Notes: generated by a model from the sequence alone, not told the origin. A stretch of DNA of 60,728 bases from Alphaproteobacteria bacterium (GCA_045536135.1 JAZSNA010000025.1:1-60728), one strand, 5' to 3'. Shown: positions 1-55,783, counted from the stretch's first letter. Numbers and translations: made by a program.

Positions 1-948
1 AATTCATGTGAAGATGCCAATGCAGTCTATATCACATTCCCATACCCACCCGTGGAAGGGGGTGTGGTGGCTGAACCAGCATCTTGTGATTCTGATGAAT
101 ATTTTAGCAATGGCTCATGTCATTCTTGCCCGTCGAGTGCGACTTGTGACGGAACAGCCAATGTGAATTGTGGTACCGGTAAGTATTTTGATGATGGGCG
201 GTGTTATTCTTGTCCATCGGATGCGACTTGTGATGGAACGGCGAATGTGATTTGTTCGGATACTAGTAAGTATTTTGATGCTTTTTGGCAGAGCTGTAGA
301 TCTTGTCCGGCTGATGCCACTTGCGATGGAACGGCTAATCCACAATGTTCAGATGGTAAAGTTGGGAATTATTATGCTGGCAGTTGGGTATGTTGTTCCA
401 CCAATGAGTATTTTGATGGTTGGAGCTGTTATTCTTGCCCGTTGGGTACAATTTGTGATGGAACGGAAAACCGTTCTTGTTCCGAAGGAAATGAATTGAT
501 TTATTATGACTGGGATTCCACGGATGTCTGTTGCCCAATCGGAACAACCGAAGTCGGGTTCGATCAATGGGACAGTTATGAATGCTGTGATCCGGAAACA
601 GAAACTCTTGTCGGTGGAATATGGGGAAGTATGCAATGTTGCACAAAAGGATATGATGACGGGTGTTGTCCTGAAAAAGGATTTTATGCTTTTTATTTGG
701 ATGATTATGTTTGTTGTTCCAATTCGGATACAGGGGTCGACGAAGAGGGTAATTGTATTTCATGTCCTAATGGAACCGGTAATATAGGTAATGGCTATTA
801 TCAACGTTGTTGCACCAATGATGAAAGCTTGATTAAGGTAAACTCTTGGATGAATGTATGTTGTCCAAAAGGGGCAACTTCTGCCGAGGATGATAGGACT
901 GCTGCTTCCGGATACCGCTGTTATGATGCTGATGGTGAAGAATTGTGA
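1..948 (+). CDS. Cys-rich repeat surface protein, 5' end outside window (paralog of 48349..49242 and 54415..55608)
   Basis: The frame is open from nt 1 (NSCEDANAVYITFPYPP...). Nt 1-50 are identical to 48730-48779. Four CxxCP-x-(D/S)ATCDG units are followed by a CC-dipeptide-rich module; stop TGA at 946-948. Confidence 0.75.
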   Translation, partial: NSCEDANAVYITFPYPPVEGGVVAEPASCDSDEYFSNGSCHSCPSSATCDGTANVNCGTGKYFDDGRCYSCPSDATCDGTANVICSDTSKYFDAFWQSCRSCPADATCDGTANPQCSDGKVGNYYAGSWVCCSTNEYFDGWSCYSCPLGTICDGTENRSCSEGNELIYYDWDSTDVCCPIGTTEVGFDQWDSYECCDPETETLVGGIWGSMQCCTKGYDDGCCPEKGFYAFYLDDYVCCSNSDTGVDEEGNCISCPNGTGNIGNGYYQRCCTNDESLIKVNSWMNVCCPKGATSAEDDRTAASGYRCYDADGEEL

Positions 949-2911: not shown

Positions 2912-5007
2912 AAGCTTTCTTTTTAAAACTTTTTGATCGTTTGATATCTCTGATTTATATCGGAGTTGGATTATTTGTCTTTTTATCTTTGTTTTCATAT
3001 CATCGGAACGATGTTTCTTTTTATACAACTTCGGATTTTGTCATTCACAATTGGATGGGCGTATTCGGGGCATATTGTTCTGACTTTTTATTTCAATGGT
3101 TCGGATATGCTTCTTATTTAATTCCGATTTTTTGTTTTTTCTGGGGGCTGAACGGATTGTTAAAAGAACATATTCCCGTTCGCTTTTATCGTATTTTTGT
3201 TTTACTTATCACAATTTTTGTCAGTTCTGTTTTCTTGGGATATAAAACAGACGGCGGAACAATCGGTATTCTTTTTCATCATCATTTTCCATCCATTCAT
3301 CCCATTTATATCTTTATCCCTTGGATTATTTGTATGTCTTTATTCGTTTGGATTTCAACAATTCCAATCAAAAAAATGATGATCGGATTATGGCGATATA
3401 AAAATATTTTCTATTTCAAAAAGGTGGCTCCTCGGCCGATTATTAAACCGAAACCCGCTCCAAAAAAAATTTCTCGAAAAGCACCGGCTATACCGGTTCG
3501 CAAAAAAGTTATCGCATCAAGCCAATGGTCATTGCCATCAATTGATTTATTAAATAATCCAAAGGCTCAAAAAGAAAATTACCTGTCAAAAGAAATGCGG
3601 GAAGTCATCGGCAAACAAATCGAAGAAGAATTGCTTCAATTCGGTGTTCGAGGACGAATTGTCCGTTCCTCCCCCGGACCAGTCGTGACCTTATATGAAT
3701 TCGAACCGTCTGCGGGGGTTAAAATATCTCGTGTTATCGGATTGGCGGATAATATCGCCCTTAAAATGCGAGTCATATCCGTCCGGATGGAGGTCATTCC
3801 GGGAACAAATGTCATCGGTATCGAAATACCGAATGAAAACCGCTTAACCGTGTATATCAAAGAACTGGTTGACTTGGACAGTTTTATGGAAAGTCCGTTT
3901 ATTCTGCCGATTATTTTGGGAAAAAATATCGCCGGAACGCCTTTTGTGGCCGACTTGGCCAAAATGCCGCATTTACTTGTTGCCGGCACGACAGGTTCCG
4001 GTAAATCCGTGGCGATTAACACCTTTATTCTTTCGTTATTATATAAATGGACACCCGATCAATGTCGTATGATTATGGTTGATCCCAAAATGTTGGAGTT
4101 ATCTGTTTACAACGGTATCCCTCACTTGTTAACGCCTGTTGTCACAGATTCATCCAAAGCCGTCGTCGCTTTAAAATGGGCCGTACGGGAAATGGAAGAC
4201 CGTTATCGGGCAATGGCCGAACTGGGGGTTCGAAATATCGACGGATATAACCAAAAAGTGACCGAAGCCAAAGAAAAAGGTATAGATTTGTCTCGCAGTG
4301 TCCAAACCGGATTTGATCCGGAAACCGGAAAACCGATTATTGAAAAAATTCAAATTGATTTAACTCCGATGCCGTTTATCGTAATCGTCGTTGATGAAAT
4401 GGCTGATTTAATGTTGGTCGCCGGAAAAGAAGTTGAAGGCGCTATCCAACGTTTGGCTCAAATGGCTCGGGCCGCAGGCATTCATCTCATCATGGCGACT
4501 CAACGACCGTCCGTTGATGTTATTACCGGAACAATCAAAGCTAACTTCCCGACCCGTATTTCATTCCAAGTGACATCCAAAATCGATTCCAGAACAATCT
4601 TAAATGAACAAGGTGCCGAACAATTGCTTGGCAAAGGGGATATGTTATATATGCCGGCCGGTCGTAAGCCGATGCGTCTGCACGGTCCTTTCGTTGACGA
4701 TAACGAAGTTGAAAAAGTTGTCAATTTTTGGAAAAATCAAGGTTCCGCAAATTATGTCGAAGCCGTATTGGAAGAAAGCGAAGAAGATACGGGACCGATT
4801 TTCGATCAAACGCCCATGGGTCGTGAAGGCGGTAATTTATATGAAAAAGCCATTGAAATTGTTCGACGGGACAATAAACCTTCTATCTCATATATTCAAC
4901 GACAATTACGTATCGGATACAACAAAGCTGCAACCTTGATTGAAAAAATGGAAGCAGACGGGATTGTCAGCAAGCCGGCGATTAACGGGAAAAGAGAAGT
5001 TTTATAA
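2908..5007 (+). CDS. ftsK: DNA translocase FtsK
   Basis: N-terminal TM segments, Walker A GTTGSGKS, VVDEMADLM, ATQRPSVDVITG, and a winged-helix gamma domain (ISYIQRQLRIGYNKAA). Confidence 0.95.
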   Translation: MKAFFLKLFDRLISLIYIGVGLFVFLSLFSYHRNDVSFYTTSDFVIHNWMGVFGAYCSDFLFQWFGYASYLIPIFCFFWGLNGLLKEHIPVRFYRIFVLLITIFVSSVFLGYKTDGGTIGILFHHHFPSIHPIYIFIPWIICMSLFVWISTIPIKKMMIGLWRYKNIFYFKKVAPRPIIKPKPAPKKISRKAPAIPVRKKVIASSQWSLPSIDLLNNPKAQKENYLSKEMREVIGKQIEEELLQFGVRGRIVRSSPGPVVTLYEFEPSAGVKISRVIGLADNIALKMRVISVRMEVIPGTNVIGIEIPNENRLTVYIKELVDLDSFMESPFILPIILGKNIAGTPFVADLAKMPHLLVAGTTGSGKSVAINTFILSLLYKWTPDQCRMIMVDPKMLELSVYNGIPHLLTPVVTDSSKAVVALKWAVREMEDRYRAMAELGVRNIDGYNQKVTEAKEKGIDLSRSVQTGFDPETGKPIIEKIQIDLTPMPFIVIVVDEMADLMLVAGKEVEGAIQRLAQMARAAGIHLIMATQRPSVDVITGTIKANFPTRISFQVTSKIDSRTILNEQGAEQLLGKGDMLYMPAGRKPMRLHGPFVDDNEVEKVVNFWKNQGSANYVEAVLEESEEDTGPIFDQTPMGREGGNLYEKAIEIVRRDNKPSISYIQRQLRIGYNKAATLIEKMEADGIVSKPAINGKREVL

Positions 5008-26349: not shown

Positions 26350-28134
<1,785 letters not shown>

Positions 28135-28148
<14 letters not shown>

Positions 28149-28482
28149 TTCACTTCAAGACAAAAGTGTTGAAAAAATTCTTATTCATAAAGCCAAAACA
28201 CTTCAAGATCGTCAAAACAAAGCCTTTTATATGAATGCCGGCGTTATCGGTATTTATGGGGGAAATATTATCATTCCCATCGTTTTGGGTTTAATCTTTG
28301 GGGGATATTTACAACAACATTTTCCCGTCGGAAAAATAAATTGGCGTATCAGTTGTATTTTTATTGGATTTGTTTTGGGATATATCAATGCTTCCCTTTG
28401 GATACATCGAGTTGCTTTTAAAGATTTCGATAATCAAAATAACCTTAAATCTAAATTACACAAGCGAGGAAAACATGTCTAA
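28135..28482 (+). CDS. atpQ: AtpQ (AtpI-like small membrane protein of N-ATPase operons)
   Basis: Two TM helices; called from its position in the operon. Confidence 0.6.
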
Positions 28483-28759
28483 TCTGCTTCAACCCGAATT
28501 AAATATCTTTAATGCTTTGTTTGTTTTTTTCAGTGCCATTATTTTATCTTGTTCATATTTTTATGTTCTGTTGCATAGTGTCAAAAAAATGAGCCAAAAG
28601 AAACATCCGATTTCTTTTATTCTGATTACCGGCATCCTCCGACTATCCGTCCTTTTCGGATGCTTGGTTATTATTGTCGGATCGAATATTTATAAGCTCA
28701 TCATTTTCAGTATCGTATTTTTCATTATCCGTTACATGTTTATCAAAAGGGAAAAGTAA
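28475..28759 (+). CDS. atpR: AtpR (N-ATPase-specific small membrane protein)
   Basis: The internal ATG at 28475 is preceded by GAGGA. Hydrophobic TM helices, with an Arg inside a hydrophobic segment (GILRLSVLFG). Confidence 0.6.
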   Translation: MSNLLQPELNIFNALFVFFSAIILSCSYFYVLLHSVKKMSQKKHPISFILITGILRLSVLFGCLVIIVGSNIYKLIIFSIVFFIIRYMFIKREK

Positions 28760-29455
28760 ATGGGAAAAAGTTTTGATCAAATTGTTCTTTTTAAAATCGG
28801 AAATATTCCCATTAATTCGACAATTTTTTGGACATGGATTATCATGGCGATTTTAACGATTTTATCGTATTTGATTACCCGAAAAATAAAACCGACTCTT
28901 TACCCTTCCAAATCACAAGCGTTATTGGAAATTTTTGTCTCTCTTTTACAAGGCGAAGTTCAAGAAATTTCCGGCGATTCTCAACCTCATAAATATATGG
29001 GGTTGGTTTGTAGTTTGTTTTTCTTTATTTTATTTGCCAATTTATTATCTGTTTTCCCTTATTATCAACCACCCACTGCATCTTTATCAACAACATTCGC
29101 CTGTGCCGGTATTGTTTTTTTAGCTATTCCGTATTTTGCCGTTAAAAATGCCGGCGTTAAAGCTTATTTTAAAAAATTTACCGACCCGACACCATTGATG
29201 CTTCCCATGAATGTCTTTTCAGATTGTTCTTCTACCATGGCGATGGCATTACGTCTTTACGGGAATATGTTTTCTGGTGTCTTATTTACAGAAATTTTAA
29301 TGATATTTTCACCTTTTATTTTGCCCTTACCGATTCAGATTTTAGGACTTTTAACCGGATCGATTCAGGCATATATTTTTGTTTTGTTGGCTGTTGTTTA
29401 TACATCCGGCGTCAGCCAACCCACACCAACGGATGTAATAATGAAAGGAAAATAA
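28760..29455 (+). CDS. atpB: N-type ATPase a subunit
   Basis: Conserved stator Arg region MALRLYGNMFSG; multi-TM. Confidence 0.85.
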   Translation: MGKSFDQIVLFKIGNIPINSTIFWTWIIMAILTILSYLITRKIKPTLYPSKSQALLEIFVSLLQGEVQEISGDSQPHKYMGLVCSLFFFILFANLLSVFPYYQPPTASLSTTFACAGIVFLAIPYFAVKNAGVKAYFKKFTDPTPLMLPMNVFSDCSSTMAMALRLYGNMFSGVLFTEILMIFSPFILPLPIQILGLLTGSIQAYIFVLLAVVYTSGVSQPTPTDVIMKGK

Positions 29456-29456
29456 A

Positions 29457-29726
29457 ATGGACGCAATGACAATTATTGGGGCTGCTTCGATTATTTCTGC
29501 CGGTTTATGTATCGCCATCGGTTCTTTTGCCGTCGCCATCGGGGAAGGCAATACCGCAGCAACGGCTTTATCTGCAATGGCTCAACAACCCGATGAGGCT
29601 AATCGGATACGATCAACTTTATTTGTCGCATTAGCGATGGTTGAAACATCTGCTCTTTATTGTTTGTTAATTACTTTTTTGATTTTGTATTCCAATCCGT
29701 TTTGGGATCATGTCATCGCAAAATAA
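29457..29726 (+). CDS. atpE: N-type ATPase c subunit
   Basis: Hairpin with a QQPD loop; ion-site residues E (IGEGN) in helix 1 and ETSxxY in helix 2. Confidence 0.9.
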   Translation: MDAMTIIGAASIISAGLCIAIGSFAVAIGEGNTAATALSAMAQQPDEANRIRSTLFVALAMVETSALYCLLITFLILYSNPFWDHVIAK

Positions 29727-29735
29727 AGGGCTATT

Positions 29736-30503
29736 ATGTCTGTCGATTTAATTACTTTATGTGCACAAATTTTAAATCTTTTGATTTTAATTTGGTTATT
29801 GAAAAAGTTTTTATATAAACCTGTTCTGTCAATTATTGAAGCCAGACAGAGTTATATAAAAGAACAATTAGATCATGCATCTCAAATGCAGGAGCAGGCA
29901 TTTAAAGCCCAAAAAGAATACCAAAATCAATTGGATTTGTTCGAAAAGGAAAAGCAAATTAAAATTCAAACCTTGAATGATGAAATGGAATTACAAAAAG
30001 AAAATCTTTTAAAAGATATTTCGTTGACCATTAAAGCGGAAAAAGATAAGTGGGCTCAAAATATTCTGAATCAGAAAAAGGATTTTGACGAACAATTATC
30101 TTCTTTAATCATTACTCAATTTAAGGTCTTGGCCGGTTCGGCTTTTTCGGAACTTGCATCCAGTTCATTACAAGCGGAAATGATACAACGTTTTAAAGAT
30201 GAATTTCATAAAAAAATCAAACAATCCCAAAAAGATATTCAATCCAAAATTCAGGGAGAAAAAATATCCATTACGGTTAATTATGCCATTAATTTAACCT
30301 CTAAGCAAAAAAATGACTTAAAGGATTTTTTAATAAATGAACTTGACTTCAAACAAATATTAGTTTCATTTAAACAAAATCCAAACCTGATTTGCGGCAT
30401 TGAAATACAAATCGGCGAACATCGAATACTTTGGGATTTAAAATCGTATTTACAACAATTTACAAATAACTTAAATGATAATATGACACAATTATTAAAA
30501 TAA
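29736..30503 (+). CDS. atpF: N-type ATPase b subunit with delta/OSCP-like C-terminal region
   Basis: N-terminal TM, long coiled coil, and a C-terminus NPNLICGIEIQIGEHRILWDLKSYL that resembles the delta-subunit C-terminus. Confidence 0.7.
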   Translation: MSVDLITLCAQILNLLILIWLLKKFLYKPVLSIIEARQSYIKEQLDHASQMQEQAFKAQKEYQNQLDLFEKEKQIKIQTLNDEMELQKENLLKDISLTIKAEKDKWAQNILNQKKDFDEQLSSLIITQFKVLAGSAFSELASSSLQAEMIQRFKDEFHKKIKQSQKDIQSKIQGEKISITVNYAINLTSKQKNDLKDFLINELDFKQILVSFKQNPNLICGIEIQIGEHRILWDLKSYLQQFTNNLNDNMTQLLK

Positions 30504-30512
30504 GGATCGGAT

Positions 30513-32024
30513 ATGTTTAAAAAAGCAACCAATAACGCGATTAAAACGATTGAAACAAGTATAAAACAAACAAAGGTTTCTCTGAAATCAAAAGAAGTCA
30601 GTTCGATTATGTCATTAACCGGCGGAACAGCCGTTTTATCCGGTTTATCAAATGTAGAAATGAATGAATTAATCGAATTTGATGGTGATGTTTTTGCAAT
30701 GGTTCAAACTCTTAATCCGGATAATGTTGGTGTTGTTTTTTTAAATTCGCCCAATTCACTTAAAGCTGGGGATCAAGGGGTTCGAACTCATCGGGTTGTT
30801 GACGTCCCTGTCGGAGATGAATTGCTGGGACGAATTATTAATCCGTTGGGACAAGTTTTAGATGGCGGGAAACCCATCGTTGTAAAAAAAACACTTCCGA
30901 TTGAACGCCCCGCTGCACCAATTATGGATCGTGCGCCCGTAGATACACCTCTTCAAACCGGTATCAAGGCCATTGACAGTTTTTCACCCATCGGGCGTGG
31001 TCAACGAGAGTTAATCTTGGGCGATCGTCAAACGGGGAAAACTGCTATCGCCATCGATACAATTTTAAATCAAAAAGGAAACGGTGTTATTTGTATTTAT
31101 TGTGCAATTGGACAACGAGAAGCCGGTATCGCTCGAATCGTATCCGAATTAAAAAAGCAGAATATTTTATCTCAATGTATTATTGTTTGTGCCAACGGAG
31201 AAGACGAAGCCGGCATGCAATATATTGCGCCCTATTCAGCAACATCCATTGGGGAATACTTTATGGAGCAGGGAAAAGATGTTTTAATCATTTATGATGA
31301 TTTAACAAATCATGCTCGTGCTTATCGCCAAATGTCATTATTATTGAAACGACCACCCGGACGGGAAGCTTTCCCGGGAGATGTTTTCTATATTCATTCT
31401 CGTTTATTAGAACGTTCCACAAAATTATGTGCCAGATTGGGGGGTGGATCTCTGACAGCTTTACCGATTGTATCTACCGAAGCCGGAAATTTATCAGCGT
31501 ATATTCCAACCAATATTATTTCCATTACGGACGGACAAATTTATCTGTCGACTTCTTTGTTTCAAAAGGGTCTTTTACCAGCAATTGAAACCGGACGAAG
31601 TGTTTCTCGTGTCGGCGGAGATGCTCAATTACCGGCTTACAGTAAATTAATCGGACCTTTAAAATTGTTTTACAATCAATTTGAAGAATTGGAATCTTTT
31701 TCAAAGTTTGGAACGGCTATGGATGAAAAAACTTTGGAAAAATTAAATCGTGGCCGTGCTATTCGAATGTTAATGACCCAACGTCAATATCAACCCATGA
31801 ATGTCGTTGATCAAATTGCCGTTATTTTAGCCGCCAATCATGGGTTATTTGATACATTTATCCCCGAGCAAATAACCAAGGGTCAAGAAATTATTTCACA
31901 GATTCTTCATTCCCAGTTCAAAAATATTATCACAAAAATACTCAATCGAGAAAAATTAAGCGAAGAAATGATTGAACAAATGATACATGAGTTCACCATC
32001 GGCTTAAAAGGAATTAAAAAATAA
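30513..32024 (+). CDS. atpA: N-type ATPase alpha subunit
   Basis: GDRQTGKTAI Walker A; alpha-type motifs. Confidence 0.9.
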   Translation: MFKKATNNAIKTIETSIKQTKVSLKSKEVSSIMSLTGGTAVLSGLSNVEMNELIEFDGDVFAMVQTLNPDNVGVVFLNSPNSLKAGDQGVRTHRVVDVPVGDELLGRIINPLGQVLDGGKPIVVKKTLPIERPAAPIMDRAPVDTPLQTGIKAIDSFSPIGRGQRELILGDRQTGKTAIAIDTILNQKGNGVICIYCAIGQREAGIARIVSELKKQNILSQCIIVCANGEDEAGMQYIAPYSATSIGEYFMEQGKDVLIIYDDLTNHARAYRQMSLLLKRPPGREAFPGDVFYIHSRLLERSTKLCARLGGGSLTALPIVSTEAGNLSAYIPTNIISITDGQIYLSTSLFQKGLLPAIETGRSVSRVGGDAQLPAYSKLIGPLKLFYNQFEELESFSKFGTAMDEKTLEKLNRGRAIRMLMTQRQYQPMNVVDQIAVILAANHGLFDTFIPEQITKGQEIISQILHSQFKNIITKILNREKLSEEMIEQMIHEFTIGLKGIKK

Positions 32025-32881
32025 TGACACTTGAAGCCTTAAAAAAACGCATTAAAACAACCACGGATTTAAGAAATATCGTATCAACGATGAAATCTTT
32101 GTCCTCGGTCAGTATCGTTGCGTATGAAAAGGCTCAAATTTCATTAACGGATTATATTCAGAATATTTGGAACGGTTTTTTAATTCTTGATAAAAATAAA
32201 GCCCTTCGCATTCCGAAAGTTGAACCATCCGATCAGGCCTTAGCCATTATTATCGGTTCGGATAACGGATTGGTCGGTCGATTTAATAAAGAAATTATTT
32301 CTTTCGCCCAAAAAGAATTACAAGATTTTAAAACATCTTATATTACCGTTGGTCGACGTATTGCATCTTTGATGCTTAATGAAAAAAATATCATCGCCAA
32401 ATATCCGATATCTAATTCTATCAAAGAAACGGCTAATATCAGTTTGGCTATTTTGAAAAATATTCCTCAAATAAAAGAAAATAAAAAATTACCATCTGTT
32501 TTTGTTTTTTATCACGAACATATCTCCGGACAACCGGTATCTTGTCAAAAAACACAACTTTTGCCATTTTCGCAATCCATTTTAAATCCGATAAAAAGTA
32601 TGAAATGGGACGGGCGAAGCTGGCCTTGTTTTAAAATTGATTCCAATATTTTGCTTTTATCGTTAATACAAGAATATATCGGAATAACTTTAGACAGTGC
32701 TTTAATCAAATCGCTGGCTGCCGAACATTATATTCGCATGATTAATATGCAAAATGCCGAGAAAAACATTGACGAACGTTTATATGAAATGAATTTAAAA
32801 TATCAACAAAAAAGACAGGAAAACATTACCGATGAACTCATCGATATCGTTTCCGCTTCACAAGCCATGAGGAAAAAATGA
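32024..32881 (+). CDS. atpG: N-type ATPase gamma subunit
   Basis: N- and C-terminal helices typical of gamma (ITDELIDIVSAS). Confidence 0.85.
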   Translation: MTLEALKKRIKTTTDLRNIVSTMKSLSSVSIVAYEKAQISLTDYIQNIWNGFLILDKNKALRIPKVEPSDQALAIIIGSDNGLVGRFNKEIISFAQKELQDFKTSYITVGRRIASLMLNEKNIIAKYPISNSIKETANISLAILKNIPQIKENKKLPSVFVFYHEHISGQPVSCQKTQLLPFSQSILNPIKSMKWDGRSWPCFKIDSNILLLSLIQEYIGITLDSALIKSLAAEHYIRMINMQNAEKNIDERLYEMNLKYQQKRQENITDELIDIVSASQAMRKK

Positions 32882-39956: not shown

Positions 39957-40388
39957 TTATATTTTCGGACAATATGTGTCACTTTCTATTTTAGTTAATG
40001 TTTCATGAAAAATTATTTCAACAGTGTTGGTATTTTCATCTGTTTTAATACACATATATTTATCCGCACTTTTTTCCATTTCTCCTTTAAACGCCTCTAC
40101 ATCATCAGCATTATTTAATTCAACCGTAATTGAAAAAGTAATCTCATCATTTTTCAGATAAGTACATTTTGTTTGATCAAGTATCTCGTCTTTTTCTGCC
40201 CCTTCACTCATCCGACGATTTTGGGGAGCATATTTTGTTGCCAAAACCAAAACCTTGTTTTTTAAAATGGACATTCGATGTCTTTTAATCACAAATTGCA
40301 TTGTCGTTAATGTAATGGCAGAAATAACTGCAATAACCGCCAATACACCAATTAATTCCACCAACGAACGTCCTTTTTCTTTTTTCAT
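39957..40388 (-). CDS. short prepilin-like protein (no Cys-repeat array)
   Basis: MKKEKGRSLVELIGVLAVIAVISAI has the same G-RSxVE plus hydrophobic-helix N-terminus as the long Cys-rich paralogs. Confidence 0.6.
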   Translation of the reverse strand: MKKEKGRSLVELIGVLAVIAVISAITLTTMQFVIKRHRMSILKNKVLVLATKYAPQNRRMSEGAEKDEILDQTKCTYLKNDEITFSITVELNNADDVEAFKGEMEKSADKYMCIKTDENTNTVEIIFHETLTKIESDTYCPKI

Positions 40389-48103: not shown

Positions 48104-48173
48104 TAATGGATTAATTCTTTTTATCCCCAACCACAAGCGTTTTAAGTCATTGAAAAGTAATGTATTTTTACAT

Positions 48174-48300
48174 CAAAAAAACCTTGGTTTTTTGCAAGAA
48201 CTTTTTTTCATGATTTAAATATTTTTTTTCTTTTATTTTAAAAGCGTTGTTTTTTCATTTTTTGCCTTTTCGAATATCAAAAAAAACCAAGGTTTTTTTT
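48174..48300. promoter_or_regulatory. candidate invertible promoter element (locus 1): 85-bp core between perfect 20-bp hix-like inverted repeats
   Basis: 48174-48193 AAAAAAAACCTTGGTTTTTT versus 48281-48300 AAAAAACCAAGGTTTTTTTT. A homologous element at 55656-55783 has the opposite orientation relative to its gene. Confidence 0.6.
48192..48220 (+). promoter_or_regulatory. sigma70-like promoter TTGCAA-N17-TTAAAT inside the invertible element, pointing at 48349
   Basis: The -35 abuts the left repeat; the same TTGCAA -35 is used by the predicted tRNA-Ala promoter. The -10 lies in a palindromic ATTTAAAT, so directionality is not certain. Confidence 0.4.
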
Positions 48301-48348
48301 ATACTGTTTTTATTGAGGAAAAAAATAACAAAAAAAAGGAGAATAAAA

Positions 48349-49242
48349 ATGAAAAAACAAAGCGGTCGGAGTATGGTTGAAATGCTGGGAACACTGGCAA
48401 TTATCGGTGTTTTGTCAGTGACGGCATTGACGGGATATAAAATCGCCATGACCAAGAATCGGACAAACAATATTTTATATGATGTGAATTTAGCGATGAA
48501 TGAAATCGCCACTCGGGAATATGGGACCTTGGCGGATGTTGAAGCTGATGTATCCACTTTGGGTGTTAAAACGGAATTTGACATCAGCTATGCCCGATTA
48601 GGGAATACAGAATCAGAAGGTTTTTATATCGTTGTGGATGGTATTACACCGGAAGTTTGTGAAACCTTGCGTTCCAATAAAACCGCTTTTATGGCGAAGA
48701 TCCAACCATATAATGGTGAAGATCCCGCCAATTCATGTGAAGATGCCAATGCAGTCTATATCACATTCCCATACCCACCAATCGAGGGGGGAGAGGTTGC
48801 AGAACCTGCACCTTGTGATTCTGATGAATATTTTAATGGTAGCTGTCTTCCTTGTCCGCCAAATGCAACTTGTGATGGAACAGCCAATGTGATTTGTTCT
48901 GATACCAGTAAGTATTTAAATGCTGCAAGGGGGAGCTGTGAATCTTGCCCATCGGGTGCGACTTGTGACGGAACAAATGTGATTTGTTCGGATACCAGTA
49001 AGTATTTAAATCCTGCATGGGGGAGCTGTCGTTCTTGCCCATCGGATGCGACTTGTAATGGATACACTGGAATTTGTTCGGATACCAGTAAGTATTTCAA
49101 TGCTTTATGGGAGGAGAGTTGTCAACCTTGTCCGGATTATGCCATTTGCGATGGAACAAAAGATGCATCCTGTGATAAAGGATGGTGGAGTGAAGTTGAC
49201 GGGTGTTGCTTTGATGATGATGTTGGTTGTCTATATCTATAA
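48349..49242 (+). CDS. prepilin-like N-domain protein with furin/VSP-like Cys-repeat C-terminal array
   Basis: AAGGAG RBS; MKKQSGRSMVEMLGTLAIIGVLSV (G, E at +5, hydrophobic helix). About 5 CxxCP-x-(D/G/N)ATC(D/N)G units, then the tail CDKGWWSEVDGCCFDDD. Confidence 0.8.
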   Translation: MKKQSGRSMVEMLGTLAIIGVLSVTALTGYKIAMTKNRTNNILYDVNLAMNEIATREYGTLADVEADVSTLGVKTEFDISYARLGNTESEGFYIVVDGITPEVCETLRSNKTAFMAKIQPYNGEDPANSCEDANAVYITFPYPPIEGGEVAEPAPCDSDEYFNGSCLPCPPNATCDGTANVICSDTSKYLNAARGSCESCPSGATCDGTNVICSDTSKYLNPAWGSCRSCPSDATCNGYTGICSDTSKYFNALWEESCQPCPDYAICDGTKDASCDKGWWSEVDGCCFDDDVGCLYL

Positions 49243-54414: not shown

Positions 54415-55608
54415 TTATAGACAACTCCCAACATCATCATCAAAGCAACACTCAGAAAGCTCATCCCACCATCCTTCATCACAAATCACAATGTCTGTTC
54501 CATCGCAAGTGGCATCAGCCGGACAAGGTTGACAGTTCCTCCATGAAACATTTAAATATTTACTGGTATCCGAACAAATCACAGTGATTCCATTGCAAGT
54601 GGCATCCGATGGGCAAGGATAGCATTCGTCGTCAAAATACGAAAAATATTCTGTTTTATCACAGCAAGAAGAATTCCCTTTACCCCCTTGATTTAGGATA
54701 TATCCATCATCACAAATCACATTCGCCGTTCCATCACAAGTCGCATCCGATGGACAAGAATCACAACTCGAACCACTAAAAAACTGATCGGTGCTTCCAC
54801 AATCGGTTATTTTCGTTCCATCACAAGTCGCGCCCGATGGACAAGAACGACAGCTCCCACCATAAAAATACTTACTGGTATCAGAACAATTCACATTCGC
54901 CGTTCCATCACAAGTCGCATCCGATGGACAAGGATAACAACTCGAACCACTAGAATACTGATCGGTGCTTCCACAATCGGTTATTTTCGTTCCATCACAA
55001 GTCGCATCCGATGGACAAGAAAAACATGAGGCAGATCCAAAATATTTATTAGAACCACAATTCACATTCGCTCCATCACAAGTCGCATCCGATGGACAAG
55101 GATAACATCTAGCATATTTAAAATATTCATCAGAATCACAAGGTACTGGTTTTTCGATCTTTCCCCCCTCGATTGGTGGGTATGGGAATGTGATATAGAC
55201 TGCATTGGCATCTTCACATGAATTGGCGGGATTATCACCATTATATGGTTGGATCTCCGCCATAAAAGCGGTTTTATTGGAACGCAAGGTTTCACAAACT
55301 TCCGGTGTAATACCATCCACAGCAATATAAAATCCGTTTTTTTCTTCCCCTCCCAGTCGAGCATAACCGATATCAAATTCCGATTTAACCCCCAAATCGG
55401 ATACAGGAGCTTCTTCATCAACCGGTAAAGACATATATTCCCGAGTGGCGATTTCATTCATCGCTAAATTCACATCGTATAAAATATTATTTGTCCGATT
55501 CTTGGTCATGGCGATTTTATATCCCGTTAATGCCGTCACCGACAAAACACCGATAATCGCCAGTGTTCCCAGCATTTCAACCATACTGCGTCCAAATTCT
55601 TTTTTCAT
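54415..55608 (-). CDS. prepilin-like N-domain protein with furin/VSP-like Cys-repeat C-terminal array (longest paralog)
   Basis: MKKEFGRSMVEMLGTLAIIGVLSV. The N-domain DNA is about 95 percent identical (by eye) to 48349..; about 7 CxxCP-x-DATCDG units; tail CDEGWWDELSECCFDDD. Confidence 0.8.
   Translation of the reverse strand: MKKEFGRSMVEMLGTLAIIGVLSVTALTGYKIAMTKNRTNNILYDVNLAMNEIATREYMSLPVDEEAPVSDLGVKSEFDIGYARLGGEEKNGFYIAVDGITPEVCETLRSNKTAFMAEIQPYNGDNPANSCEDANAVYITFPYPPIEGGKIEKPVPCDSDEYFKYARCYPCPSDATCDGANVNCGSNKYFGSASCFSCPSDATCDGTKITDCGSTDQYSSGSSCYPCPSDATCDGTANVNCSDTSKYFYGGSCRSCPSGATCDGTKITDCGSTDQFFSGSSCDSCPSDATCDGTANVICDDGYILNQGGKGNSSCCDKTEYFSYFDDECYPCPSDATCNGITVICSDTSKYLNVSWRNCQPCPADATCDGTDIVICDEGWWDELSECCFDDDVGSCL
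54717..55064. repeat. 174-nt (58-codon) tandem duplication inside the Cys-repeat array
   Basis: 54717-54845 versus 54891-55019 differ at about 6 positions by my count. Confidence 0.75.
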
Positions 55609-55655
55609 TTTTATACTCCCTTGTTATTATTAATTTTTACCAATAAAAACAGTAT

Positions 55656-55783
55656 AAAAAAAACCTTGGTTTTTTGCAAGCATTTTTTTTACAATTTAAA
55701 TATTTTTTTTCTTTTTTTTTCAAAAAACTTATTTTTTCATTTTTCGCCTTTTTGAATATCAAAAAAAACCAAGGTTTTTTTTT
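55656..55783. promoter_or_regulatory. candidate invertible promoter element (locus 2), flipped relative to its gene compared with locus 1
   Basis: 55656-55675 AAAAAAAACCTTGGTTTTTT and 55761-55783 AAAAAAAACCAAGGTTTTTTTTT. The 85-bp core is colinear with locus 1 on the + strand although the gene is on the - strand. TTGCAA-N16-TTAAAT (55674-55701) points away from the gene. Confidence 0.6.

Follow-up and report, generated by a model that had tools for sequence, protein, structure and literature searches.

Candidate inversion switches upstream of two paralogous pilin-like genes on a metagenomic contig from an alphaproteobacterium

We have studied a stretch of 60,728 nucleotides (nt) of DNA from a bacterium classified in the Alphaproteobacteria (GCA_045536135.1, JAZSNA010000025.1:1-60728), which we refer to as a whole as the window. 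The window contains two paralogous genes for pilin-like proteins with cysteine repeats, gene 1 on the plus strand and gene 2 on the minus strand, and upstream of each lies a small cassette in which two inverted repeats bracket a segment of 85 base pairs (bp). An earlier reading of the sequence, the original prediction, had taken the cassette of gene 1 to be an invertible promoter in the style of fimS or hin, controlling a surface protein. The features of the two loci are as follows, locus 1 being that of gene 1 and locus 2 that of gene 2.

48175-48193: putative gene-distal recombination site of locus 1, 19 nt, A7-CC-TT-GG-T6 (AAAAAAACCTTGGTTTTTT), a palindrome except for the central TT.
48192-48197: TTGCAA, a palindromic -35-like hexamer at the GCAA end of the locus 1 segment.
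48194-48278: putative invertible segment of locus 1, 85 bp, with its GCAA end facing away from gene 1.
48279-48300: putative gene-proximal recombination site of locus 1, A8-CC-AA-GG-T8 (AAAAAAAACCAAGGTTTTTTTT).
48300-48305, plus strand: TATACT, a fixed -10-like hexamer just outside the proximal site of locus 1, with a predicted start near A48312.
48349-49242, plus strand: gene 1, 297 amino acids, with a pilin-like N-terminus (GRSMVEMLGTLAIIGVLS) followed by CxxCP...C(D/N)G cysteine repeats.
54415-55608, minus strand: gene 2, a paralogue of gene 1, 397 amino acids, its first 450 nt 89% identical to gene 1.
55651-55690, minus strand: candidate split promoter of gene 2, A8-TGC-TTGCAA (hexamer at 55679-55674), a spacer of 17 nt and TATACT (55656-55651).
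55656-55675: putative gene-proximal recombination site of locus 2, A8-CC-TT-GG-T6 on the plus strand.
55676-55760: putative invertible segment of locus 2, 85 bp, with its GCAA end adjoining gene 2.
55761-55783: putative gene-distal recombination site of locus 2, A8-CC-AA-GG-T9 on the plus strand.

At locus 1 the two arms form an inverted repeat that is perfect over 19 nt (48175-48193 and 48281-48299). The original prediction was right that the repeat is perfect, but had given it 20 bp (48174-48193 and 48281-48300); position 48174 is C, and the first tract is A7 rather than A8. A repeat-finding program extended the arms to 22 nt at 95%, with 87 nt between the extended arms. Direct reading of the sequence confirmed that each arm is built as an A-tract, CC, WW, GG and a T-tract, and is palindromic save for a central dinucleotide that is TT in the first arm and AA in the second. 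With its flanks, the proximal arm reads ATATC-A8-CC-AA-GG-T8-ATAC (48274-48304). The predicted length of the enclosed segment, 85 bp, is exact, and the entire cassette is a unit of 125 bp with terminal inverted repeats. The first arm starts 72 nt past the stop codon of radC, and the proximal arm ends 48 nt upstream of the ATG of gene 1 (48349). On the inner side of TTGCAA there is a T7 tract (48203-48209), which is an A-tract on the other strand. At both loci we find the form of an inverton, i.e., a short segment between inverted repeats beside the start of a gene.

The arrangement is far from what would be expected of random sequence. The motif AAAAACCWWGGTTTTT occurs four times in the window against an expectation of 0.05, and none of 100 shuffled sequences reached four occurrences. 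The four matches make up the two cassettes, each with a segment of 85 bp and site centres 105 bp apart. The window holds three perfect 19-mer inverted-repeat pairs at a gap of 20-150 nt; in Markov-1 simulations a perfect pair of only 14 nt at that gap arose in just 27 of 200 runs. The repeat architecture is real, and well beyond chance. The hexamer CCWWGG was also considered as a restriction-linked signal; this was ruled out, its frequency being that expected.

Arms of this kind might instead be hairpin terminators or attenuators, or paired palindromic operators at which a dimeric regulator would draw 105 bp of DNA into a loop. The arms are indeed close to perfect palindromes, the separation of the centres corresponds to about 10 helical turns at both loci, and the first arm follows closely on radC. 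Folded as RNA, however, the arms gave free energies of only -3.3 to -5.5 kcal/mol, no better than shuffled sequences, and no terminator-like site was called at either locus. The weakness of the hairpins rules out the arms as terminators. Moreover, neither the opposite orientation of the two segments nor the flipping of a homologous cassette, both described below, is explained by a terminator or operator function, and we find this interpretation scarcely credible.

The cassette of locus 2 (55656-55783) lies upstream of the minus-strand paralogue, 7.4 kb from that of locus 1. When the two loci are aligned in the sense of their genes, the alignment takes in the coding start (89% identity), the gene-side flank (83%), the ribosome-binding site and both arms. 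The distal flanks are unrelated (49%), so that the distal arm marks the exact point at which the loci become similar. The segments themselves align the other way round. They are 86% identical when compared on the same strand, i.e., flipped relative to the genes, and 45% identical when compared in the gene-relative sense. Opposite orientations are seen, then, between two paralogous loci of a single assembly, with one orientation at each locus.

The details of the comparison are informative. The tracts of the inner half-sites keep to their segment ends at both loci, T6 beside GCAAG and A8 beside GATATC, and this fits strand exchange inside the core. There are no substitutions at the approximately 41 site positions compared, in neighbouring DNA that has diverged by 11-14%; a simple binomial estimate of the probability is about 0.005. 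Both interiors are exactly 85 bp in spite of two offsetting indels. A block of 15 nt beside the gene-side arm, ATACTGTTTTTATTG, shows no difference between the loci, and the next 25 nt diverge.

A unit of 125 bp with terminal inverted repeats, at whose distal arm the similarity between loci begins, could also be a miniature transposable element (Correia-like, or like a miniature inverted-repeat transposable element) that came to lie before both genes by insertion in either orientation and has a -35 hexamer facing outwards. Insertion sequences and Correia elements typically form hybrid promoters by means of outward -35 elements. Yet there are only four sites in 60.7 kb, all of them at the two paralogues, at the same distance from the ATG and beside the same flank, and we saw neither target-site duplications nor dispersed copies. 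Exact scans of public contigs for the paired-site pattern found no related cassette: the sole match in the genome collection was an unrelated GC-rich tandem repeat (L001), the eight matches in the metagenome collection (L002-L009) were all unrelated, and the viral contigs gave no match. Nor would transposition explain a homologous cassette that flips in place with unchanged flanks. We consider a transposable element to be very unlikely. Two of the unrelated matches have a structure of their own. One (L008:1370-1586) is a 31-bp tandem array of TTGAACGCAAAAAGAAAACCWWGGTTTTG, with AA and TT alternating as the central WW, and the other (L001:5280-5530) is a GC-rich tandem duplication of 125 bp, the copies of which differ at the same central dinucleotide.

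A homologous cassette gives evidence of inversion in the wild. The locus (L010) of P0009, a homologue with 34% identity, has the same architecture in a different sequence. Its arms of 35 nt (TCTACCA.AAAAACG-GT/AC-CGTTTTT.TGGTAGA) are palindromes around a non-palindromic centre, GT in one and AC in the other; 122 nt lie between them, and from the end of the proximal arm to the ATG there are 14 nt. Four other samples yielded orthologous contigs (L012-L015), with members of the same 90% protein cluster as P0009. These contigs have the same gene-side arm and gene, but the adjoining segment is the reverse complement of the L010 interior. Both orientations are therefore found at one locus among five source samples (ERZ27316163, ERZ27316737, ERZ27316892, ERZ28594300 and ERZ27316097). 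In addition, all four of the contigs L012-L015 stop within the cassette or at its distal edge, the gene beginning at nt 76-171, and this is what a mixed orientation in the population does to an assembler. The class of cassette to which L010 belongs can be taken, on direct evidence, to invert in nature; for the window's own loci the evidence is not direct. The P0009 group is alone in having such a cassette; none of ten further homologue loci (L011, L016-L022, L024 and L025) has one with inverted repeats.

These observations bear upon the possibility that the inversion in the window is a fossil, i.e., that a single flip followed the gene duplication, the 19-22-bp repeats having recombined, for example, in a rare homologous or template-switch event, and that switching has now ended. 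A single orientation per locus in one assembly, and a contig in which we found no recombinase, would both agree with this. However, it is made unlikely by the conservation of the sites and the polymorphism of the homologue: the sites have been kept perfectly amid 11-14% divergence and the segment length is exactly 85 bp, while the homologous cassette is polymorphic in orientation among five samples. Furthermore, a palindrome with a non-palindromic central dinucleotide is the design of an invertase crossover site, and RecA-dependent recombination normally needs more than the 19 bp of these arms. We conclude that the cassette very probably is, or recently was, a real inversion switch.

Some further features of the cassettes may be recorded here. 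The gene-side sites (48279-48300 and 55656-55675) are mutually inverted and 7.4 kb apart, and recombination between them would invert a block containing both genes and groESL, thereby swapping the genes between cassettes. Such an inversion is possible, and the data are explained without it. The sites at 48175 and 55656 are direct repeats, recombination between which would excise groESL. Within the locus 1 segment, 48244-48262 read on the other strand nearly repeats the start of the gene at 48345-48363 (AAAAATGAAAAAACAA; 19 nt, 95% complementary), and such a copy occurs also at 55737-55755. The flipped state would present this as a mini open reading frame (ORF) after AAAGG, which at locus 1 would encode MKKQRF-stop and at locus 2 MKK-stop. 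The L010 cassette has a similar block, TTGTTTTTT(A)TCATTTTT. The near copy may be a remnant of the origin of the cassette, or a decoy start.

How might inversion of so short a segment affect transcription? A consensus scan called TTGCAA-17-TATACT on the gene strand at locus 2, and no gene-directed promoter in the locus 1 cassette. Where TTGCAA lies next to the gene-side arm it gives A8-TGC-TTGCAA-N17-TATACT, in which the recombination site is the spacer and the -10 hexamer is in the fixed flank. The two loci agree in the A6 and T8 tracts, which set the spacer at exactly 17 bp, and the predicted transcription start for gene 2 is near 55644. The TATACT and the predicted start of locus 1 fall in the 15-nt block common to the two loci (48301-48315). 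As assembled, locus 1 has TCAAAA at the -35 position, a poor match without an A-tract.

The putative split promoter conforms to a signature of this genome, A7-8-(G)AC-TTGNNN-N16-17-TANNNT, which is found at both tRNAs, rpmI, rpmF, pyrG and parC. The composite pattern occurs 9 times against 2.5 expected, and locus 2 is among the 9. One of the tRNA promoters uses the same hexamer; as the original prediction had stated, TTGCAA is also the -35 of the tRNA-Ala promoter (AAAAAAAAC-TTGCAA-N17-TATATT). The regular form of promoter (A7-8, (G)AC, a TTGACA-like hexamer, 16-17 nt and TANNNT) stands upstream of many genes, e.g., at 5006, 10854, 16276 and 52638, and should be useful for annotating the lineage.

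Each cassette was scored in both orientations, using a promoter matrix that is crude, having been built from eight promoters outside the cassettes. The best gene-directed score for each state was:

Locus 2 as assembled, GCAA end next to the gene: 11.3, the best of the four states.
Locus 1 flipped in silico, GCAA end next to the gene: 8.8.
Locus 2 flipped in silico, GCAA end away from the gene: 7.5.
Locus 1 as assembled, GCAA end away from the gene: 4.2.

Given that the inversion switch is real, these features lead us to favour the split promoter, with some reserve. On that reading locus 2 is probably ON and locus 1 probably OFF, locus 1 being more likely OFF than ON because the better promoter is assembled in the other orientation.

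The original prediction had instead placed a complete promoter inside the segment of locus 1, and the sequence on which it relied, TTGCAA (48192-48197), 17 nt and TTAAAT (48215-48220) upstream of the ATG at 48349, is present as described. The same switch with an internal promoter of this kind (TTGCAA-N17-TTAAAT, or N18-TAAATA) would make locus 1 ON and locus 2 OFF. TTGCAA and a block ATTTAAATATTTTTTTTCTTTT are identical in both cassettes, and the stretch between them varies, both in sequence and by 1 nt in length, in the manner of a promoter spacer. Some -10 hexamers in this genome are TAGATA or TATAAA, so that TAAATA is conceivable. In L010, moreover, the promoter must be within the segment, because the arm abuts the ribosome-binding site. 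Against this, T occupies the second position of TTAAAT, where A is nearly invariant, and TAAATA does not have the T of position 6. TTGCAA-N17-TTAAAT is passed over by the consensus scan, scores poorly with the genome matrix and is outside the four best matrix hits of locus 1 as assembled (best 4.2). An A-tract immediately before the -35, such as the other promoters of the genome have, is missing, and the identical block of 15 nt after the gene-side arm is left unexplained. The internal promoter as originally drawn does not stand up well to these comparisons, and we regard an internal promoter in general as a doubtful, if reasonable, alternative to the split promoter.

The sites were compared with those of known DNA invertases. 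The gix sites of phage Mu, taken from the annotated boundaries of the G segment, are TTATCCAAAACC-TC-GGTTTACAGGAA and TTCCTGTAAACC-GA-GGTTTTGGATAA. The sites beside pinE in the e14 prophage of Escherichia coli K-12 are GAAAACC-TT-GGTTTGG and CCAAACC-AA-CGTTTAT, and 13 nt (AAAACCTTGGTTT) are identical between an arm in the window and an e14 pix site; the gene-distal arm of locus 1 has the core of the pix site. The core AAACC-NN-GGTTT, with a non-palindromic central dinucleotide, is common to the window arms, Mu gix and e14 pix. The window arms have the design of Hin/Gin/Cin/Pin crossover sites in their half-sites, 2-bp centre and core, and as in those systems the sites are inverted, and their half-sites form a palindrome round a non-palindromic 2-bp centre that sets orientation. 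From this core, the likeliest recombinase would be a Hin/Gin/Cin/Pin-type serine DNA invertase that works in trans. A tyrosine recombinase that takes CCWWGG as a 6-bp overlap region is possible.

We can now put forward a mechanism. Each of genes 1 and 2 would be preceded by a small site-specific inversion switch, in which two inverted sites (A6-9/CC/WW/GG/T6-9) with centres 105 bp apart bracket the 85-bp segment. A recombinase encoded elsewhere in the genome would exchange strands in the core and flip the segment, and it would act in trans on several loci. When the segment end with the A-tract and TTGCAA is at the gene-side site, that site would become a 17-bp spacer with the fixed TATACT as the -10, and the gene would be ON, as at locus 2. 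In the reverse orientation TCAAAA would occupy the -35 position, with no A-tract, and expression would be OFF or low, as at locus 1. Inversion at locus 1 would create the junctions ACATC-A7-CCTTGG-T8-GATATTCG and GTTCTTGC-A6-CCAAGG-T8-ATACTG. An inversion switch before each pilin-like paralogue, with an unlinked invertase and a split promoter, is the best explanation of the data as a whole, and we put its chances at about even. A more specific version, in which the site is the promoter spacer, the segment brings or removes only the A-tract and -35 hexamer, a Din-type serine invertase acts in trans at several loci on a loop shorter than the classical enhancer-dependent synapse allows, and slippage in the homopolymer tracts that fix the 17-bp spacer may add a second layer of variation, is offered tentatively. 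We infer present-day activity at loci 1 and 2, as well as the class of recombinase and which orientation is ON.

A number of observations weigh against this interpretation. Both orientations have never been observed at one and the same locus of this genome. An ORF survey and Pfam scans that included the unassigned ORFs revealed no serine or tyrosine recombinase in the 60.7-kb contig, none was present in the flanks fetched around the homologues, and in a tblastn search nothing in the window or in any of the fetched loci matched Mu Gin at better than E = 0.9. A loop of 105 bp is very short for the synapse of an enhancer-dependent serine invertase. The A-tracts of the window are 6-9 bp where those of Hin and Gin sites are 4-5, and the conserved outer half-site positions, of the type TTATC or TTCTC at a fixed 12 bp from the centre, are not found; the half-site ends in the window are ACATC-A7, AGTGC-A9, CTTGC-A6, ATATC-A8 and AGTAT-A8, in which both tract length and flank vary. 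With regard to the promoter, the split-promoter score of 11.3 is under the top 25 matrix scores in the window. Promoter-like hexamers are cheap in a region so rich in AT, and the locus 1 orientation offers at least three candidates directed at the gene: TTGCAA-N17/18-TTAAAT or TAAATA, TTTTCA-N17-TATCAA, and TTGGTT-N18-TACAAT (the last at locus 2 flipped in silico only). Lastly, a split promoter cannot work in L010, because the gene-side arm abuts the ribosome-binding site.

The relationship to the Hin/Gin/Cin/Pin family is thus a qualified one. The likeness that the original prediction drew is borne out to the extent that the arm core matches real Gin and Pin cores, but membership of the family cannot be claimed, because there is no recombinase in the contig, the A-tracts are 6-9 bp and the half-site ends are unconserved. 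There is no invertase gene within or beside the segment, unlike those systems. The sites of Mu and e14 are about 3.1 kb and 1.8 kb apart, compared with a segment of 85 bp here, which leaves little room for a Fis enhancer; the window segment differs from the classical ones both in this shortage of room for an internal enhancer and in that at least two loci would be controlled. The cassette works like Din-type inversion, yet it cannot be filed as a member.

Other known systems resemble the cassettes in different respects. In Bacteroides fragilis, Mpi is an unlinked serine recombinase that flips several polysaccharide promoters in trans. The Mpi system shares with the window short promoter cassettes before surface loci, one repeat consensus and an association with the gut, and its unlinked recombinase is of the kind proposed here. 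It differs in that the window cassettes are about half the size, have arms that are complete palindromic sites, belong to an Alphaproteobacteria-like metagenome-assembled genome (MAG) and probably have a split promoter. The two cassettes 7.4 kb apart share identical cores, and the failure to find a recombinase in the contig is compatible with a regulon of the Mpi type but no proof of one; an unlinked recombinase with multiple cassettes would bring the window system closer to the Mpi arrangement.

The mpl genes of Mycoplasma penetrans (P35 family) have invertible promoter cassettes of about 135 bp with repeats of about 12 bp, and tyrosine recombinases. There too a very small invertible cassette serves each surface-protein paralogue, with combinatorial ON/OFF control, but the window arms are palindromes of 19-23 bp with an invertase-like core, and the segment is shorter still. 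The fimS element of E. coli is 314 bp with 9-bp repeats, adjacent genes for the tyrosine recombinases FimB and FimE, and a promoter wholly inside. Its likeness to the window cassette is that of a short invertible element with a promoter, placed immediately before a pilus or pilin gene and giving ON/OFF phase variation, but its size, repeats, adjacent recombinases and fully internal promoter are all unmatched. In the hybrid promoters of insertion sequences and Correia elements, the end of a mobile DNA gives the -35 and resident sequence the -10. In the window, by contrast, the -35 would be delivered and withdrawn reversibly by inversion in place, and the spacer would be the recombination site. 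Taken together, the original idea of a fimS- or hin-style invertible promoter for a surface protein gains from the opposite orientations at the paralogues, the flipped homologue and the Gin/Pin core, and finds no support for its internal promoter or for membership of the Hin family.

The genes themselves belong to a family that is represented more than twice in this genome, which has at least three paralogues of the cysteine-repeat gene. The third lies at the left end of the contig:

1-948, plus strand: third cysteine-repeat paralogue, running off the left contig end within the conserved N-terminal domain, with its upstream region beyond the contig.

The contig probably broke at this repeated family. 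The match of gene 1 to PF07963 is weak, and some homologues are named PilE-like or carry pilin Pfam domains. For the pilin-like N-terminal domain, the best homologue has 42% identity over most of the query, with higher values only over short N-terminal stretches, and several of the matches belong to MAGs with the label Alphaproteobacteria. Neither gene 1 nor the window GroES had an exact protein match in the collections, and the best match to the window RadC, apart from its own contig, is only 47% identical. The lineage is one without a sequenced close relative, known from one metagenomic contig. Elsewhere in the window, 39957-40388 on the minus strand encodes a pilin-like protein of 143 amino acids with the N-terminal motif GRS(L/M)VE(L/M) and weak matches to models of prepilin-peptidase-dependent pilins; it lies directly downstream of a gene for a transporter of the major facilitator superfamily and has no cassette. 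The ATP synthase genes (26371-32881) are in the order beta, epsilon, small membrane ORFs, a, b, alpha and gamma, an order that we take to recall an N-type ATPase operon and not the usual F-type order.

In most other homologues the place of the cassette is taken by a leader of about 200 nt, conserved and structured, with a terminator hairpin at its end. Examples are:

L011:3765-3975, structured leader.
L016:9775-9990, structured leader (the same in L017-L019).
L020:1125-1320, structured leader.
L022:6845-7040, structured leader.
L025:3135-3335, structured leader.

Conserved stretches of the leader are AAUA, AAUAUG, CACUAU and AACUUCC, and RNAalifold applied to five sequences predicted 42 pairs, 18 of them with compensatory changes. 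The leader has no match in Rfam and is absent from the window. It is a candidate for an undescribed riboswitch or leader. The locus of another homologue, P0026, has a (CA)n tract, about 70 nt long, that separates the gene from a promoter-like region (L024:6040-6115); the tract may serve in slipped-strand phase variation of the same protein family.

Invertible promoters are a main route of surface variation in host-associated bacteria, and the principle of such a switch is well known. What is unusual here is the very small size, the presence of invertase-like palindromic sites with no linked invertase, and the probable use of the site as a spacer. If the split promoter is correct, the design would be a compact one in which the crossover site doubles as the promoter spacer, and we know of no described example of this. 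If the reading is true, moreover, 85 bp would be among the shortest invertible segments, with a bearing on the minimum DNA loop for synapsis by an invertase. The breaking of the homologue contigs at the cassette indicates that such switches fragment metagenome assemblies and hide the genes that they control. Inversion switches are extended here to a new lineage, and to a pilin-like cysteine-repeat family. This one protein family appears to be subject to several modes of control, with a structured RNA leader at most of the relatives' loci examined and a putative (CA)n tract at one. If true, the switches would provide for combinatorial expression of cysteine-repeat pilin-like surface proteins in an uncultured, deep-branching alphaproteobacterium.

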